In this document: piece after piece, positions 1 through 6,794 of the stretch
Layout: every line of letters starts with the position of its first letter
Numbering within the stretch: position 1 is the first letter of the stretch
Virus record (IMG/VR): IMGVR_UViG_2657245124_000002
Span: 1 to 6,794 of that record
Origin: a virus
Taxonomy: Duplodnaviria; Heunggongvirae; Uroviricota; Caudoviricetes
Strand: one strand, 5' to 3'
DNA length: 6,794 nt
Notes under the pieces: generated by a model
Told to the model about the DNA's origin: nothing
The model's database searches: none
What the model saw: only the letters and a program-made list of their open reading frames with translations
Position numbers and translations under genes: made by a program

Positions 1-2907
1 CAGCTGCAGAACAAAACGCTCTGGTCGTCATACACCGAAATCATCGATGTGAAACAGTGCTACCCGAACACGGCACTGGTCGGCGTACAGGTGGATTCGG
101 AGCAGTTCGGCAGCCAGCAGGTGAGCCGTAATTATCATCTGCGCGGGCGCATTCTGCAGGTGCCGTCGAACTATAACCCGCAGACGCGGCAATACAGCGG
201 TATCTGGGACGGAACGTTAAAACCGGCATACAGCAACAACATGGCCTGGTGTCTGTGGGATATGCTGACCCACCCGCGCTACGGCATGGGGAAACGTCTT
301 GGTGCGGCAGATGTGGATAAATGGGCGCTGTATGTCATCGGCCAGTACTGCGACCAGTCGGTGCCGGACGGTTTTGGCGGTACGGAGCCGCGCATCACCT
401 GTAATGCCTGGCTGGCCACACAACGTAAGGCGTGGGATGTGCTCAGTGATTTCTGCTCGGCGATGCGCTGTATGCCGGTATGGAACGGGCAGACGCTGAC
501 GTTCGTGCAGGACCGGCCGTCGGATAAGGTGTGGACCTATAACCGCAGTAATGTGGTGATGCCGGATGATGGCGCGCCGTTCCGCTACAGTTTCAGCGCC
601 CTGAAGGACCGCCATAATGCCGTTGAGGTGAACTGGATTGACCCGGATAACGGCTGGGAAACGGCAACAGAGCTTGTGGAGGACACGCAGGCCATTGCCC
701 GTTACGGTCGTAACGTCACGAAGATGGATGCCTTTGGCTGTACCAGTCGGGGGCAGGCACACCGCGCCGGGCTGTGGCTGATTAAAACAGAACTGCTGGA
801 AACGCAGACCGTGGATTTCAGCGTCGGCGCAGAAGGGCTTCGCCATGTACCGGGCGATGTTATTGAAATCTGTGATGATGACTATGCCGGTATCAGCACC
901 GGTGGTCGTGTGCTGGCGGTGAACAGCCAGACCCGGACGCTGACGCTCGACCGTGAAATCACGCTGCCATCCTCCGGTACCACGCTGATAAGCCTGGTTG
1001 ACGGAAGTGGCAATCCGGTCAGCGTGGAGGTTCAGTCCGTCACCGACGGCGTGAAGGTAAAAGTGAGCCGTGTTCCTGACGGCGTTGCTGAATACAGCGT
1101 ATGGGGGCTGAAGCTGCCGACGTTGCGCCAGCGCCTGTTCCGCTGCGTGAGTATCCGTGAGAACGATGACGGCACGTATGCCATCACCGCCGTGCAGCAT
1201 GTACCGGAAAAAGAGGCCATCGTGGATAACGGGGCGCACTTTGACGGCGAACAGAGTGGCACGGTGAATGGTGTCACGCCGCCAGCGGTGCAGCACCTGA
1301 CCGCCGAAGTCACCGCAGACAGCGGGGAATATCAGGTGCTGGCCCGCTGGGACACGCCGAAGGTGGTGAAGGGGGTGAGTTTCATGCTTCGCCTGACCGT
1401 GGCAGCGGATGACGGCAGTGAGCGGCTGGTCAGCACGGCCCGGACGACAGAAACCACATACCGCTTCAGGCAGCTGGCGCTGGGGAACTACAGGCTGACA
1501 GTCCGGGCGGTAAATGCGTGGGGGCAGCAGGGCGATCCGGCATCGGTATCGTTCCGGATTGCCGCACCTGCAGTGCCGTCGCGGATTGAGCTGACGCCGG
1601 GCTATTTTCAGATAACCGCCACGCCGTATCTTGCCGTTTATGATCCGACGGTACAGTTTGAGTTCTGGTTCTCGGAAAAACGGATTGCGGATATCAGGCA
1701 GGTTGAAACCACAGCCCGCTATCTTGGTACGGCGCTGTACTGGATAGCCGCCAGTATCAATATTAAGCCGGGCCATGATTATTATTTTTACGTTCGCAGT
1801 GTGAACACAGTCGGCAAATCGGCATTCGTGGAGGCTGTCGGTCGGGCGAGCGATGATGCGGAAGGTTACCTGGATTTTTTCAAAGGAGAAATCGGGAAAA
1901 CACATCTGGCCCAGGAGCTGTGGACGCAGATTGATAACGGTCAGCTTGCGCCGGACCTGGCTGAAATCAGGACGTCCATTACGAATGTCAGCAATGAAAT
2001 CACGCAGACCGTCAATAAAAAACTGGAAGACCAGAGTGCGGCAATCCAGCAGATACAGAAAGTTCAGGTTGATACAAATAATAACCTGAACAGCATGTGG
2101 GCCGTGAAACTGCAGCAGATGAAGGACGGACGCCTTTATATTGCGGGTATCGGAGCCGGTATTGGGAATACGCCAGCAGGTATGCAGAGTCAGGTGCTTC
2201 TGGCTGCTGACCGGATTGCGATGATTAATCCTGCGAATGGCAACACAAAGCCGATGTTTGTTGGTCAGGGCGATCAGATATTCATGAACGACGTGTTCCT
2301 GAAACGCCTGACAGCTCCGACCATTACCAGCGGCGGTAATCCTCCGGCATTTTCCCTGACACCGGACGGGCGGCTGACGGCGAAAAATGCCGATATCAGC
2401 GGTAACGTGAATGCGAACTCCGGGACGCTCAACAACGTCACGATTAACGAGAACTGTCGGGTTCTGGGAAAATTGTCCGCCAACCAGATTGAAGGCGATC
2501 TCGTTAAAACAGTGGGCAAAGCTTTCCCCCGGGACTCCCGTGCACCGGAGCGGTGGCCATCAGGGACCATTACCGTCAGGGTTTATGACGATCAGCCGTT
2601 TGACCGGCAGATTGTTATTCCGGCGGTGGCATTCAGCGGCGCTAAACATGAGAAAGAGCATACTGATATTTACTCCTCATGCCGTCTGATAGTGCGGAAA
2701 AACGGTGCTGAAATTTATAACCGTACCGCGCTGGATAATACGCTGATTTACAGTGGTGTTATTGATATGCCTGCCGGTCACGGTCACATGACGCTGGAGT
2801 TTTCGGTGTCAGCATGGCTGGTGAATAACTGGTATCCCACAGCAAGTATCAGCGATTTGCTGGTTGTGGTGATGAAGAAAGCCACCGCAGGCATCAGTAT
2901 CAGCTGA
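1..2907 (+). CDS. J: Phage tail-tip host-specificity protein J (lambda gpJ-like central fibre), 5'-partial; the gene begins upstream of the window
   Basis: Frame 1 is open from nt 1 to the TGA at 2905-2907. The translation matches lambda gpJ as recalled, e.g. [59 protein letters not shown]. Two fibronectin-III-like repeats lie at about aa 420-600 of the in-window product. The GTG at 49 used by the ORF track is internal, not the true start. Confidence 0.95.
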
Positions 2908-2925
2908 ATTTTATAACCCATATAC

Positions 2926-2952
2926 GGGCGCCAGAAATGGCGCCTTTTTTAT
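2926..2952 (+). terminator. Rho-independent terminator downstream of J (tJ-like)
   Basis: GGCGCC (2927-2932), loop AGAAAT, GGCGCC (2939-2944), then a T6 tract (2945-2950), 19 nt after the J stop. Confidence 0.7.
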
Positions 2953-2974
2953 TGCAGAAAAGCGAGAGGTAATT

Positions 2975-3406
2975 ATGCGTAAAGTTTGTGCAGCCATTTT
3001 GTCCGCAGTCATCTGTCAGTCCGTATCCGGTGCGCCTGCATGGGCGTCTGAATATCAGTCCACACTGAGCGCGGGGTATCTTCATGCCCGTACGAACGCT
3101 CCCGGCAGCGATAATCTGAACGGGATTAACGTGAAATACCGTTATGAGTTTACGGACGCGCTGGGGCTGATTACGTCCTTCAGTTATGCCAATGCTGAGG
3201 ATGAGCAAAAAACGCACTACAGCGATACCCGCTGGCATGAAGATTCCGTGCGTAACCGCTGGTTCAGCGTGATGGCGGGGCCGTCTGTACGCGTGAATGA
3301 ATGGTTCAGCGCGTATGCGATGGTGGGTGTGGCTTACAGCCGTGTGTCGACTTTCTCCGGGGATTATCTCCGCGTAACTATACAGCAAATAAACCAACAG
3401 GCCTGA
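2975..3406 (+). CDS. lom: Lom-family outer membrane beta-barrel protein (Ail/OmpX/PagC family), C-terminally truncated; probable pseudogene
   Basis: GAGAGG Shine-Dalgarno 6-11 nt upstream of the ATG at 2975. N-terminal signal peptide MRKVCAAILSAVICQSVSGAPAWA. Lom-like sequence runs to about ...[11 protein letters not shown] (near nt 3379), then 8 unrelated codons and a stop. The product is 143 aa against roughly 206 aa for lambda Lom (from memory). Confidence 0.8.
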   Translation: MRKVCAAILSAVICQSVSGAPAWASEYQSTLSAGYLHARTNAPGSDNLNGINVKYRYEFTDALGLITSFSYANAEDEQKTHYSDTRWHEDSVRNRWFSVMAGPSVRVNEWFSAYAMVGVAYSRVSTFSGDYLRVTIQQINQQA

Positions 3407-3927
3407 CAGATGGAACTGTATATGTAATTTACAGTTCGCACATTAAACCGACTGCTGCTGATGTTGGGGCGTTGTCATTATCTGGAGGTCAACTGAATGG
3501 TGCACTGGGTATCGGAACATCCAGTGCTCTTGGCGGTAATTCGATTGTATTGGGTGATAATGACACGGGCTTTAAACAAAATGGCGATGGTAATCTGGAT
3601 GTTTATGCTAATAACGTCCATGTTATGCGCTTTGTTTCCGGCGGCATTCAAAGTAATAAAACCATAAATATTACAGGGCGTGTTAACCCCTCGGATTACG
3701 GTAACTTTGATTCCCGTTATGTGAAAGATGTTCGACTTGGTTCACAGCAATATTATGGAGTGAACAACTGGCAAACATGGAATTTCCAGTGCCCTTCAGG
3801 TCATGTATTATCTGGTATTAATGTTCAGGATACAGGGTCTAACTCTGCCGATAATATAGCGGGCGTTTATTACAGACCCGTTCAAAAGTATATAAATGGC
3901 ACCTGGTATAATGTAGCGAGCGTTTAA
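3301..3927 (+). CDS. Side tail fibre C-terminal (receptor-binding) segment, copy 1; 5'-truncated fragment with fibre homology only from about nt 3380
   Basis: The translation from about 3380 ([63 protein letters not shown]...[11 protein letters not shown]) is paralogous to the minus-strand fibre segment at 5021-5950. The first 25 codons of the track ORF are lom DNA read out of frame, there is no Shine-Dalgarno at the ATG at 3301, and the TAA stop (3925-3927) sits 1 nt before the tfa ATG. Confidence 0.7.
3478..3740 (+). repeat. Left arm of a 263-bp inverted repeat inside the two tail-fibre variable segments
   Basis: Compared by eye with the reverse complement of 5187-5449: about 10 mismatches in 263 bp (about 96%), with a perfect run of roughly 110 bp at 3478-3586. 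Confidence 0.85.
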
Positions 3928-3928
3928 T

Positions 3929-4456
3929 ATGATGCACTTAAAGAACATAAAAGCGGGTAATGCTAAAACACTGGAACAGTATGAGTTAACAAAGAAACAC
4001 GGAGTTATCTGGCTTTACTCTGAGGACGGAAAAAACTGGTATGAGGAAGTGAAAAACTTTCAGCCAGACACCATAAAGATTGTTTACGATGAAAATAATA
4101 TTATTGTCGCCATCACCAGAGATGCCTCCACGCTTAATCCCGAAGGTTTTAGCGTCGTCGAGGTTCCCGATATAACGGCCAATCGTCGGACCGATGATTC
4201 CGGTAAGTGGATGTTTAAGGACGGAGCTGTGGTTAAACGGATTTATACGGCTGACGAACAGCAACAACAGGCCGAATCACAAAAGGCCGCATTGCTTTCC
4301 GAAGCTGAATCAGTCATCCAGCCGCTGGAACGCGCTGTCAGGCTGAATATGGCAACAGACGAGGAACGCACACGACTGGAAGCATGGGAACGCTACAGTG
4401 TTCTGGTCAGCCGTGTGGATACGGCAAATCCTGAATGGCCACAAAAGCCTGAATAA
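3929..4456 (+). CDS. tfa: Tail fibre assembly protein (Tfa / Mu U-like chaperone), cognate to fibre copy 1
   Basis: 175-aa ORF starting 1 nt after the fibre stop. The N-terminus [40 protein letters not shown] is typical of Tfa chaperones, and the protein is a paralogue of the 4485-5018 product. Confidence 0.85.
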
Positions 4457-4461
4457 AAATT

Positions 4462-4481
4462 AAGGCCCGATAGCGGGCCTT
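4462..4481. terminator. Hairpin between the convergent tfa genes; candidate bidirectional terminator
   Basis: Perfect 8-bp stem AAGGCCCG (4462-4469) / CGGGCCTT (4474-4481) with loop ATAG. An A-rich tract to its left gives a U-tract for minus-strand transcripts; the plus-strand T tract is weak. Confidence 0.5.
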
Positions 4482-4484
4482 CTC

Positions 4485-5018
4485 TCATTCTGGTTGTTCT
4501 GGAAACGTTACTGGCAGGCTGGAGGTGTCTGTGGATTCAACCTTCTGCGCATAGAGCATCCACTCGGTTAATTTTTGTTTATTCTCATCGGAAATGATGC
4601 CCAGCCGTAGCTGAGAGTCCCACAGCTGGGTTTTATCCCTGACGAGCTGCAGCAGGCTCTGCTTTTCATTTTCCGCTTGTTGCCTTTGCTCTTCCTCGGT
4701 ATAAGTTCGCTTTATCACCGCACCATCTTTGAACATCCAGTTGCCCGAAATATCAGCCCGGCGATTTGCTGTAATATCAGGCAACTCAACGACACTTAAA
4801 CCTTCTGGATTAATTGCTGATACATCCTTGTCTATAGCAATAATTATTCCCTCAACTGTGTAAGCCAGTTTTATTGTATCCTCCTGAAAGTTTTTTAATT
4901 CCTCATACCAATTTTTTCCATCTTCGGACCATAACCAGATAACATCAAAATTCTTTGTTAGCTGGTATTGTTCAACGGTTTTTGGATTACCTGCGACAAT
5001 GTTTTTTAAATGCTGCAT
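4485..5018 (-). CDS. tfa: Tail fibre assembly protein (Tfa / Mu U'-like chaperone), cognate to fibre copy 2
   Basis: 177-aa ORF with ATG at 5018-5016, 2 nt after the stop of the minus-strand fibre segment and preceded by an AGGT Shine-Dalgarno. N-terminus [40 protein letters not shown]. Confidence 0.85.
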
Positions 5019-5020
5019 GA

Positions 5021-5950
5021 TTATACCTGCGATACGTTATACCATGTTCCGTTAATTAACTTTTGTATTGGTCTGAATACTGCCGGATCATCACCATCGA
5101 CTTCACCGATAATACCAAGCCCCGTGATTACATGGCCTGATTTTTCATACATCACGCCTTTCTTCATGGTCTGAACAACTCGTGTGCCAAGTCTGACATC
5201 TCTCACATAGCGGGAATCAAAGTTACCGTAATCCGAGGGATTAACACGTCCCGTAATATTTATGGTTTTATTACTTTGAATGCTTCCGGAGACAAAGCGC
5301 ATAACATGGACGTTATTAGCATAAACATCCAGATTACCATCGCCATTTTGTTTAAAGCCCGTGTCATTATCACCCAATACAATCGAATTACCGCCAAGAG
5401 CACTGGATGTTCCGATACCCAGTGCACCATTCAGTTGACCTCCAGATAACGGCAGTGCACCAACATCTCCTGCTGAAGGTTTTCTGGTGGTGGTGTAAAA
5501 TTCGGACCAGTCGGCTTCAAAACCATAACCATCACGGGCTGAACGATAAAAAATACCGCCATTTTTATAATTAATCCGAAACTGAGCTGCAGGACAACTT
5601 CCTTCTCCCATATAAAAATGAATAATTAACGTTGATGCACCACTAATAGTTGCGTTATAGGCTCCGCTACTCCAGTTCCATCCAACTGCTTTATCATTCT
5701 CAACGGTGCTTCCTGTTTTCCCTAAGGCAAACGCACCAACATGACTTGCTTTTAATGTGATATCGGAGGAACCATCAAAAGCCACATTGCTTATTTTCCT
5801 GGCAGTTTTTAATTTTGCAGCTGTAGAAGCATTGCCGGATAGTTCACCAGAAAGGCCACCGCTGAATGTTTGTCGATTAGTCCAGGTATTCGCTGTACTG
5901 AGTAACGGTATTTTCTCCCCGCTTGTGCCGAGTTCTCGTAAACCGAGGTT
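5021..5950 (-). CDS. Side tail fibre variable C-terminal segment, copy 2 (silent-orientation copy with no start codon of its own; the track calls 5021-5785 from an internal GTG)
   Basis: The minus-strand frame is open from 5950 to the TAA at 5023-5021 (translated by hand: [66 protein letters not shown]...). An in-frame TAA lies immediately outside the crossover site (5953-5951), as expected for a segment that is expressed only after inversion fuses it to a constant fibre N-terminus. Confidence 0.8.
5187..5449 (-). repeat. Right arm of the 263-bp inverted repeat (partner of 3478-3740)
   Basis: The reverse complement of 5187-5449 aligns base for base with 3478-3740. Both arms encode [81 protein letters not shown]. 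Confidence 0.85.
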
Positions 5951-5958
5951 TTAGATAA
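5933..5958. other. Site-specific inversion crossover site (hix/gix/pix-like, 26 bp)
   Basis: TTCTCGTAAACC-GA-GGTTTTAGATAA: two imperfect inverted 12-bp half-sites around a 2-bp core. The right half reads TTATCTAAAACC on the other strand, close to the recalled TTATCAAAAACC half-site consensus. It sits 55 bp upstream of the invertase start and inside the fibre copy 2 reading frame. Confidence 0.65.
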
Positions 5959-6012
5959 TGGCGGTTTCTGGCCTGCATGGAATGATTTGTGCTTTTGGAC
6001 GGGAGATTCAGC

Positions 6013-6279
6013 GTGCTGATTGGCTATGTAAGGGTATCAACAAATGACCAGAATACAGATCTGCAACGAAACGCTCTTGTTTGTGCAGGATATGAACAAA
6101 TATTTGAAGATAAATTAAGCGGAACAAGGACAGGCCGACCTGGATTAAAATGTGCTTTAAAGCGCCTTCAAAAAGGTGACGCACTGGTTGTCTGAAAACT
6201 GGACTGACTGGGTCACTGTATGCGGCATCTTGTCGTGCTGGTGGTGGAAGCCTAGAAAAAGTATCGGGTGTTGCTGAAC
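6013..6279 (+). pseudogene. pin: Serine DNA invertase of the Pin/Gin/Cin/Hin family, inactivated by in-frame stops and truncated by an IS insertion
   Basis: GGGAGA Shine-Dalgarno, then GTG at 6013. The product VLIGYVRVSTNDQNTDLQRNALVCAGYEQIFEDKLSGTRTGRPGLKCALKRLQKGDALVV carries the resolvase-type catalytic N-terminus. The frame hits TGA at 6193-6195, TGA at 6205-6207 and TAG at 6253-6255, while homology continues between them (KLD*LGHCMRHLVVLVVEA*). Homology ends at the IS boundary at 6280. Confidence 0.85.

Positions 6280-6794
<515 letters not shown>

Follow-up and report, generated by a model that had tools for sequence, protein, structure and literature searches.

The window analysed here, a 6,794-nt stretch of Caudoviricetes DNA (positions 1 to 6,794 of IMG/VR virus record IMGVR_UViG_2657245124_000002), carries two tail fibre ends that face each other, each followed by its own tail fibre assembly (tfa) gene, which raises the question of what element they belong to and whether each fibre tip is tied to the chaperone gene beside it. 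A preliminary description of positions 3741-5186 had read them as hypervariable tips, each paired with a cognate chaperone and framed by conserved joints. The open reading frames (ORFs) place the two alternative fibre C-terminal parts and their tfa genes at 3301-3927/3929-4456 on the plus strand and, convergently, at 5950-5021/5018-4485 on the minus strand. The arrangement is thus present where it had been described, but the Gin/Pin-type invertible segment that explains it had been missed, the crossover site (5933-5958) lying outside the range covered. Based on the matches of TfaA to Mu U, TfaB to Mu U′, and the tips to Mu S, together with a gix-like site and a Resolvase ORF, we consider it highly probable (roughly 0.88) that 3741-5186 is the core of an invertible host-range cassette of the phage Mu G-segment type, located in a lambdoid prophage.

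The Mu G segment (S/U, S′/U′, Gin), to which the P1/P7 C segment (Cin) and the e14 P segment (Pin) are related, has the same two convergent units of fibre end and tfa, and the same class of 26-bp site next to a serine invertase gene. Window positions 3865-5056 share approximately 85% DNA identity with Mu 32910-34102, and the fibre ends are homologous to the C-terminal domains of S and S′. TfaA (3929..4456, plus strand; PF02413, E=8e-38) is 91% identical to U and matches chain 5YVQ_B (E=4e-103), while TfaB (4485..5018, minus strand; PF02413, E=4e-34) is 86% identical to U′, with a C-terminal third of the U′ type. PDB entry 5YVQ is the Mu tail fibre/Tfa complex (North et al. 2019) and 8JU3 is the Mu(-) fibre structure (Mori et al. 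2024); both partners of the Mu fibre/Tfa complex represented by these entries are homologous in sequence to the window proteins. In contrast to the Mu G segment, the cassette of the window sits in a lambdoid prophage, with J and lom upstream, rather than in a Mu-like phage, and its tip core classes differ from those of Mu S and S′, tip A belonging to a class found in P2-like phages and tip B to the L-413C gpH/P1 S class. Furthermore, both arms share an extra conserved block of ~95 residues, and the switch is inactive, with one site, a dead invertase, and no constant fibre part. The cassette is common to lambdoid, P2-like, Mu-like, and P1-like genomes; a near-copy (~94% identity) resides in a P2-like prophage whose recombinase is intact, and thousands of E. 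coli genomes carry annotated near-identical copies. The biology of the cassette is ordinary and the system was known before; with the textbook Mu G segment as a close relative, its value as a discovery is slight.

In an intact element of this kind, a serine invertase of the Gin/Pin family acts on a pair of inverted 26-bp sites: the first marks the point within the fibre gene where the constant part gives way to the variable part, and the second adjoins the invertase gene. Inversion joins the constant N-terminal fibre part to either alternative C-terminal part and also brings the matching downstream tfa into the same transcript, both units converging on a common terminator hairpin. In Mu, G inversion alternates the S/U and S′/U′ pairs (PMC10434027, PMC11915804). 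A G+C-rich hairpin that is likely a terminator lies between the convergent tfa genes of the window at 4462..4481 (terminator scan; fold of -20.1 kcal/mol, z=-3.8), with a T-run on the minus strand. A pattern search located the gix/pix-like 26-bp crossover site TTCTCGTAAACCGAGGTTTTAGATAA at 5933..5958 on the plus strand, where it forms the right-hand boundary of the invertible segment. This site differs by 3 nt from Mu gix, and the same pattern recovers both annotated boundaries of the Mu G segment as well as two inverted copies in each of two intact relatives, L001 and L002. In the window, no second gix-like site was found with up to 3 mismatches allowed, the only copy being the one at 5933-5958. 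The segment is adjoined by a pin/gin-like serine invertase pseudogene (6013..6255, plus strand), whose ORF matches the Resolvase N-terminal domain (PF00239, E=3.9e-14), contains TGA at codons 61 and 65, and is then interrupted. The truncation is due to an IS3-family transposase fragment (6322..6768, minus strand; NCBIfam NF033516, E=1.3e-48). No constant N-terminal fibre part reading across a site was found in the window; instead, a truncated lom-like gene of 143 aa (2975..3406, plus strand; Pfam PF06316, E=2.4e-86, covering Ail_Lom profile positions 1-140 of 199) runs directly into mid-fibre A at ~3373, a position obtained by alignment with Yersinia phage vB_YpM_5 and L001. Deletion would have removed both the left crossover site and the constant part of the fibre, with lom fused to stf; since the sequence comes from a short draft contig, an assembly artefact may underlie the lom::stf junction. 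With one site left, nonsense codons and an IS3-family insertion in pin, and the constant part of the fibre deleted, the switch is dead and the cassette is a frozen relic rather than a working member of the family. Both orientations were nevertheless seen across genomes. Arm A lies beside J-lom in the window, whereas in the E. coli prophage L001 arm B is joined to the fibre gene beside lom-J, so that a 934-aa fibre gene crosses the site and runs into tip B and tfaB; this comparison, at 99% identity over 2.5 kb, is one between genomes and not within one population.

The two fibres follow the same plan. Fibre A (plus strand) consists of a shaft remnant at 3376..3741, with a weak gp37_trimer Pfam match, that ends in a 12-residue joint 1 (3706-3741), followed by the 44-residue variable core of tip A (3742..3873) and by joint 2, made of 17 residues and the stop codon (3874..3927). 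On the minus strand, the variable C-terminal region of fibre B upstream of the tip core (5186..5950; gp37_C Pfam match) is followed by the 37-residue core of tip B (5075..5185) and by its own 17-residue joint 2 and stop codon (5021..5074), identified by alignment with the A copy. Translation indicated that the fibre B reading frame is open as far as the crossover site, and residues 71-166 align with 8JU3_A in its Mu S′ part (E=1.3e-56). The conserved block, which is part of the shaft remnant in fibre A, is 85% identical in amino acid sequence between the two fibres. Beyond it, the fibres had been said to diverge completely, and the tip peptides quoted in support match the sequence exactly. When nt 3742-3873 were compared with nt 5185-5075, the tip cores did diverge, with identity at 8 of 44 aligned columns (18%), but not completely (z=3.9, equalled by 1 of 1,000 shuffles), because they have the motif SGHV(L/I)(S/T)G in common. 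Tips A and B are thus distant homologues. As described, the fibres reconverge at the C terminus in joint 2, RP(V/I)QK(Y/L)INGTWYNV(AS/SQ)V, where 13 of 17 residues are identical (z=11.5). The close abutment of fibre stop and tfa start also held on both strands, with a 1-nt gap between the end of the stfA frame (3927) and tfaA (3929) and a 2-nt gap between the end of stfB (5021) and tfaB (5018).

Both tips match the C-terminal domain of Mu S (5YVQ_A residues 424-503, phmmer), the tip A region over Mu S 425-503 (E=1e-15, with a further match to 9CUY_c) and fibre B residues 232-307 over Mu S 424-502 (E=1.1e-15). As in the Mu S-type domain, FDSRYV...RLG, SGHVxTG, and a 14-residue C-terminal motif are present in both. 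Each fibre ends in a domain of ~80 residues homologous to the receptor-binding domain of Mu S, in which the conserved scaffold motifs FDSRYVxDVRLG and SGHVxxG and the 14-residue C-terminal motif frame variable stretches with discrete allelic classes. By homology, these variable stretches presumably set the receptor specificity of tips A and B, that is, which lipopolysaccharide is bound. The core of tip A is 100% identical in a P2-type phage record, and tip B shares 93% identity with the tip of gpH from Yersinia phage L-413C and 72-78% with P1 S/P7 Sv′. Window positions 4699-5873 share approximately 85% DNA identity with the P2-family H/G genes of L-413C; unlike the window, L-413C carries a single non-invertible unit in which tip B is followed by a U-type Tfa, while tip B of the window is followed by a U′-type Tfa. 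The same tips are also found on different upstream sequence in relatives, each of them on at least four classes of 100-residue shaft. Shaft exchange, discrete tip classes, and the occurrence of the cassette in several phage families all bear out the modular architecture proposed in the preliminary description, and modules are likewise common to unrelated phage families in the mosaic tail-fibre genes of P2, Mu, P1, lambda, and T-even phages.

Both Tfa proteins score well above the curated cut-off of PF02413 (Caudo_TAP; 129.9 and 117.9 bits versus 22.1) and are 56% identical to each other overall. Their N-terminal regions are more similar than the 55-60% first estimated, at 71% identity over residues 1-119, and the C-terminal thirds differ as stated, with 28% identity from residue 120 to the end. 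North et al. are said to find, across all Tfa proteins, a variable N-domain and a conserved C-domain; this general pattern is reversed here and in Mu U/U′. An AlphaFold single-sequence model of TfaB predicted helices at 108-138 and 144-162; the model is poor (mean pLDDT of 53) and was used for these two C-terminal helices only. According to PMC9608196 and PMC8174754 (citing North 2019, 2021), production of the Mu fibre needs Tfa, which stays bound to the tip, the fibre being bound by the N-domain and trimerisation being mediated by the C-terminal helical domain. Mu Tfa, as described in PMC9608196, has the same modular plan as the window proteins, in which a fibre-binding domain at the N terminus is followed by a helical one at the C terminus. 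A paper on P2 pseudotyping contains nothing on chaperones. If the window proteins behave like Mu U, the N-terminal domain of each Tfa would bind the fibre tip, and Tfa would drive trimer assembly from the fibre C terminus through its C-terminal two-helix domain.

If each tip travelled with a matching chaperone, Tfa divergence should follow tip divergence in related phages. We surveyed 197 unique tip/Tfa combinations from ~320 related loci, a sample skewed to enterobacterial prophages and sorted into classes by arbitrary thresholds; a profile search of contigs with the Tfa alignment gave only 6 distant loci and contributed little. Tfa classes were taken from average-linkage clustering, as greedy clustering left the N-class of the window TfaB ambiguous. 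That R, P, Q, G, W, and Y never vary in joint 2 of this collection was partly forced by the search pattern; it is an unforced data set that supports the joint. Seven tip, 10 Tfa N-domain, and 4 Tfa C-terminal classes were found, with many off-diagonal combinations, and the tip classes are discrete (79-96% identity inside a class, 16-50% between classes). Among the unique combinations that contain tip B, 70 have a U-type Tfa, that of the isolated phage L-413C being one of them, and 8, including that of the window, have a U′-type Tfa. Exact tip A occurred with a U-type Tfa C-terminal third in 46 combinations, with U′-like thirds (6 of a variant class and 1 of the U′ class), and with one unrelated Tfa. 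A natural chimera, in which the TfaA N-domain is joined to a U′-like C-terminal third, is carried by locus L173. The N-domain class of the window TfaA and Mu U serves tips A and B as well as Mu S, and that of the window TfaB serves tips B and S′. Moreover, the Tfas found with tip A and with tip B can be as much as 97% identical, those paired with tip B are as little as 56% identical, and vB_YpM_5 carries tip B on both arms, each with a different Tfa type. Such co-occurrence in prophage contigs is no proof that a pair works, whereas L-413C, Mu, and vB_YpM_5 have been isolated as phages. The expected tracking was thus largely contradicted, and the proposal of a cognate chaperone survived only in part: modularity and a statistical association stand, and strict tip-specific pairing is not supported. 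The survey shows, at the level of sequence, that tips and Tfas are mixed and matched among relatives. The association is substantial (AMI of 0.63 between tip and Tfa N-domain and 0.48 between tip and Tfa C-terminal third), so it leaves room for some specificity, and it would also be expected from simple physical linkage. Since the same tip occurs naturally with different Tfa types, the neighbouring Tfa is an unreliable signature of the tip, a correction that matters for annotation and phage engineering.

Published work suggests that Mu Tfa, which stays on the fibre tip, helps to bind lipopolysaccharide. Reassortment could for that reason amount to a combinatorial host-range code rather than neutral shuffling, with tip class and Tfa class as independent specificity determinants that are freely combined in a space of 7 tip, 4 Tfa C-terminal, and ~10 N-domain classes. 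We regard this as possible but rather unlikely. Strictly co-evolved pairs, in which each tip needs its own Tfa and the divergent Tfa C-terminal third is matched to the tip and exchanged with it, seem improbable. Tip and Tfa C-terminal third do both differ between the arms of the window, tip S′ occurs in the survey only with the U′ C-terminal type, most tip A copies have the U type, and Mantel tests give positive correlations (r=0.66 and 0.49). However, both C-terminal types and several N-domain classes of Tfa are found with tip A and likewise with tip B, and tips with only 18-33% identity are served by Tfas up to 97-98% identical. The L-413C pairing and the two arms of vB_YpM_5 point the same way, as does the fact that the fibre-binding part of Mu Tfa, according to the account of the Mu work in PMC9608196, is the N-domain, which is the better conserved part here.

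Of the two inverted repeats in this region, the larger one, I1, has 318-nt arms at 3428-3745 (in the fibre A shaft remnant) and 5182-5499 (in fibre B) that are 90% complementary according to the repeat finder, and 3486-3635 is 100% identical to 5441-5292. As a recombination site, I1 was rejected, the gix-like site lying ~430 nt further out and the frame of fibre B being open up to there. The second, weaker inverted repeat noted at the stf/tfa junctions exists as well, with 159-nt arms at 3929-4087 and 4860-5018 that are 73% complementary, and a sliding-identity profile shows that it also takes in the final ~55 nt of stf, at 70-77%. Its use as an internal DNA-level recombination site, inverting the tfa pair or swapping tips in situ, has very little to recommend it: the repeat is present and module breakpoints in related phages map near joint 2 and within tfa, but the codons of identical residues differ close to saturation (54% in joint 2, 37-64% in the 5′ half of tfa), as do 4 of 5 four-fold sites in joint 2. 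In addition, the repeat lacks a gix-like core, the pattern AAACCNNGGTTT occurring only once in the window, and homologous recombination works poorly at 73% identity. Identical residues are encoded by different codons in only 13% of cases in the conserved block versus 54-58% in joint 2 (7 of 13) and the tfa core; with synonymous sites saturated in the joints, similarity there is kept at the protein level. The two inverted repeats are not recombination sites, and the second is a by-product of protein-level conservation. The joints are conserved because they are required in the protein, and they also provide points for the exchange that has reshuffled four modules (shaft, tip, and the N-domain and C-terminal third of Tfa) among phages of the Mu, P1, P2, and lambda types; tip and Tfa types are consequently associated without a one-to-one match.

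Strict hypervariability through continuous targeted mutagenesis, for instance by a diversity-generating retroelement, was rejected as having next to no probability, for although the two fibres resemble each other least in their tip cores, these fall into the discrete classes given above, the tip A core of the window is identical in dozens of contigs, and neither a reverse transcriptase ORF nor a template repeat was found among the ORFs and repeats of the window. The joints, FDSRYVxDVRLG and the 14-residue C-terminal motif, are instead natural splice points for chimeric fibres. As a separate observation, inversion in vB_YpM_5 would change only the shaft and the Tfa while keeping the tip class, an outcome that would fit a combinatorial code.

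The window corresponds to the entire draft contig LIVH01000067.1 (6,794 bp; assembly GCA_001420045.1) and opens with 2.9 kb from the 3′ end of a tail tip gene of the lambda J type (NCBIfam lambda_TipJ), followed by a lom-like gene that ends early, at 143 residues (Pfam Ail_Lom positions 1 to 140 of 199). On the plus strand, a fiber A fragment whose frame ends at 3927 precedes tfaA (3929 to 4456). On the opposite strand, tfaB (5018 to 4485) is preceded by an open frame running from about 5950 to 5021 that encodes the C-terminal part of fiber B. A resolvase-family open reading frame (ORF) resembling pin/gin invertases starts at 6013 and contains TGA at codons 61 and 65, and an IS3-family transposase fragment occupies 6768 to 6322 on the minus strand. 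The 28-nt gap between the convergent tfa stop codons holds a G+C-rich 8-bp hairpin (4462 to 4481) with a T-run on the minus strand, which probably acts as a shared terminator at the center of the segment, ending both transcripts.

TfaA matched the phage Mu Tfa protein U (PDB 5YVQ chain B) over its full length (E=4e-103) and is 91% identical to it, and TfaB is 86% identical to Mu U′, with the same C-terminal third. Both fiber ends matched the C-terminal domain of the Mu fiber protein S (5YVQ_A residues 424 to 503; E=1e-15), the upstream part of fiber B matched the S′ part of 8JU3 (E=1e-56), and tip A also matched 9CUY_c, a “short tail fiber” chain of known structure. The sequence TTCTCGTAAACCGAGGTTTTAGATAA at 5933 to 5958, lying shortly before the invertase ORF, constitutes a crossover site: when searched with three mismatches allowed, this pattern recovered exactly the two annotated boundaries of the Mu G segment, as well as one inverted pair of copies in each of two related E. 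coli prophages. These matches to U, U′, S, and S′, along with the crossover site, identify positions 3741 to 5186 as the middle of an invertible cassette of the Mu G-segment type. All of its parts are homologous to the Mu system, and its modules have a mosaic distribution. The long inverted repeat (3428 to 3745/5182 to 5499) was rejected as a crossover site, the gix-like site being the one at 5933 to 5958.

The region from 3460 to 5962 matches a lambdoid prophage of E. coli (L001) at 99% identity but in the opposite orientation; there, a 934-residue fiber gene beside lom and J continues into tip B and tfaB, and arm A is the silent copy. The cassette also occurs at about 94% identity in a P2-like prophage (L002) whose recombinase is intact (199 residues). 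Among isolated phages, Mu, D108, P1, and P7 share about 85% DNA identity with the cassette center, and P2-like phages, Yersinia phage L-413C among them, have H/G genes about 85% identical to arm B. Tip A was found at 100% identity in a P2-type record and at 72 to 74% in fiAA91-ss, 11W, and an Actinobacillus phage, and tip B at 93% in L-413C gpH and at 72 to 78% in P1 S and P7 Sv′. The system is of a known kind, with a sequence near textbook members. Programmed inversion of Mu-like fiber genes in prophages has already been cataloged (PMC9881135), and Pin systems of cryptic prophages are under study (PMC12529663).

Comparison of the two arms confirmed the preliminary description of the fiber/tfa units, with two corrections. 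The tip peptides and the spacing between genes were right (1 nt for stfA-tfaA and 2 nt for stfB-tfaB), and translation of tfa may be coupled to the fiber stop. The conserved block is 85% identical between arms, and the C-terminal joint matches at 13 of 17 residues. The tip cores (3742 to 3873 and 5185 to 5075), said to diverge completely, are indeed very dissimilar (8 of 44 columns, or 18%), but they score above shuffles (z=3.9) because both contain SGHV(L/I)(S/T)G, making them very distant homologs rather than unrelated sequences. The Tfa proteins are 56% identical overall; their C-terminal thirds differ as described (28% from residue 120 to the end), but residues 1 to 119 are 71% identical, higher than the 55 to 60% first estimated. 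The second, weaker inverted repeat is also present (3929 to 4087/4860 to 5018; 159 nt, 73% complementary) and runs on at 70 to 77% to cover the final ~55 nt of the fiber genes.

Each tip had been proposed to be paired with a cognate chaperone. Loci were gathered from the Tfa side and the tip side and supplemented with annotated loci (about 320 in total), and every fiber end was extracted together with the ORF starting beside its stop, yielding 197 distinct tip core/joint/Tfa combinations. Under average linkage, the tips sorted into 7 classes, the Tfa N domains into 10 (80% identity), and the Tfa C-terminal thirds into 4 (70% identity). Tip identity is 79 to 96% inside classes and 16 to 50% across them; the tips are discrete allelic cassettes rather than hypervariable sequence. 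Pairing was not one to one, as both tips occur with several Tfa types. Tip B combinations carry a U-type C-terminal third (70) or the U′ type (8), and tip A combinations the U type (46), a U′-like variant (6), the U′ class (1), or an unrelated Tfa (1). The N-domain class of TfaA and Mu U accompanied tip A (42), tip B (70), and Mu S (1), and that of TfaB accompanied tip B (8) and tip S′ (6). Full-length Tfas accompanying tip A and those accompanying tip B reach 97% identity to each other, those of tips B and Mu S reach 98%, and Tfas beside tip B go as low as 56%. Such discordant pairings are not limited to prophage contigs, since isolated phage L-413C combines tip B with a U-type Tfa, and the Mu-like Yersinia phage vB_YpM_5 (L005, 2132 to 4750) carries tip class B on both G-segment arms, one followed by a U-type and the other by a U′-type Tfa. 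Inversion in vB_YpM_5 would alter the shaft and Tfa but hardly the tip core. At least 10 viral contigs combine the window's exact tip A and joint with a downstream chimeric Tfa, in which the first 60 residues are those of TfaA and the C-terminal third is U′-like; this implies a recombination breakpoint inside tfa. Chimeric Tfas are carried by loci L173, L175-L179, L207, L220, and L232, and the U′-like variant third ends in QQLMNWMRYVQQVETTDTSVLPVTFPEPPE. In another viral contig (L242), a tip A core one residue off that of the window precedes a Tfa whose N terminus is unrelated (MNNFKNFTSYTPGEDKRELIDAG) and whose C-terminal third belongs to a fourth class; the fiber joint in this contig reads RPVQYCINGTWYTAASV. 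A residual tip/Tfa association was measured (AMI, 0.63 and 0.48; Mantel r, 0.66 and 0.49), which physical linkage alone would produce. The sole mildly new point is the measured failure of tip and Tfa classes to pair one to one. Modular exchange on the upstream side was well supported: the 100 residues preceding tip A fall into at least four classes, as do those preceding tip B, with the junction at FDSRYVxDVRLG.

Codons for identical residues differ between arms at only 13% of such positions in the conserved block, and identity is perfect over 150 nt (3486 to 3635 versus 5292 to 5441) inside a 318-nt, 90% inverted repeat, which suggests recent gene conversion. This contrasts with the old divergence of the adjoining joint and tfa, where 54% (joint 2) and 58% (tfa codons 69 to 119) of such codons differ and four-fold sites are nearly saturated (4 of 5 and 13 of 17 differing, respectively). 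The joints and weak inverted repeat are therefore old sequence kept by protein-level selection, neither a DNA element nor a recent exchange, and the weak repeat was likewise rejected as a crossover site.

Such conservation fits Mu work, in which Tfa is reported to be required to make the fiber and to remain on its tip, binding it through the N-terminal domain, and a C-terminal helical domain that the crystal structure does not resolve is proposed to drive trimerization from the fiber C terminus (PMC9608196, PMC8174754, PMC10579305). A single-sequence model of TfaB contains two helices (108 to 138 and 144 to 162), so the divergent third is predicted to form most of the helical domain, not the fiber-binding one, a further reason not to take it as the tip-matching part. 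Tfa would dock largely on conserved tip features, and the variable tip cores would set receptor (lipopolysaccharide) specificity.

The switch has decayed in the window. Only one crossover site is present, the segment lacks the fiber constant part and some 400 nt of arm A, with lom joined to stf-like DNA at about 3373, and the IS3-family element interrupts the invertase pseudogene at about 6255. With a single site, no constant part, and a dead invertase, the cassette is frozen, and neither fiber can be made full-length. The left crossover site is gone along with the constant part. Since the contig is short (6.8 kb) and the assembly draft, the lom::stf junction may be an artifact. At this junction (about 3370 to 3380), 143 of about 200 Lom residues are followed directly by stf-like DNA of the kind present in phage vB_YpM_5, and the exact truncated Lom is carried by this contig only. 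Directly upstream of the intact tfaA, an ORF of 208 residues (3301 to 3927), with an ATG inside lom in another frame, would encode a free fiber-tip fragment; the public record calls a TTG start for the same frame (3472 to 3927, 151 residues). Receptor blocking, as reported for e14 StfE2 (PMC12529663), is a possible kind of role for such a fragment.
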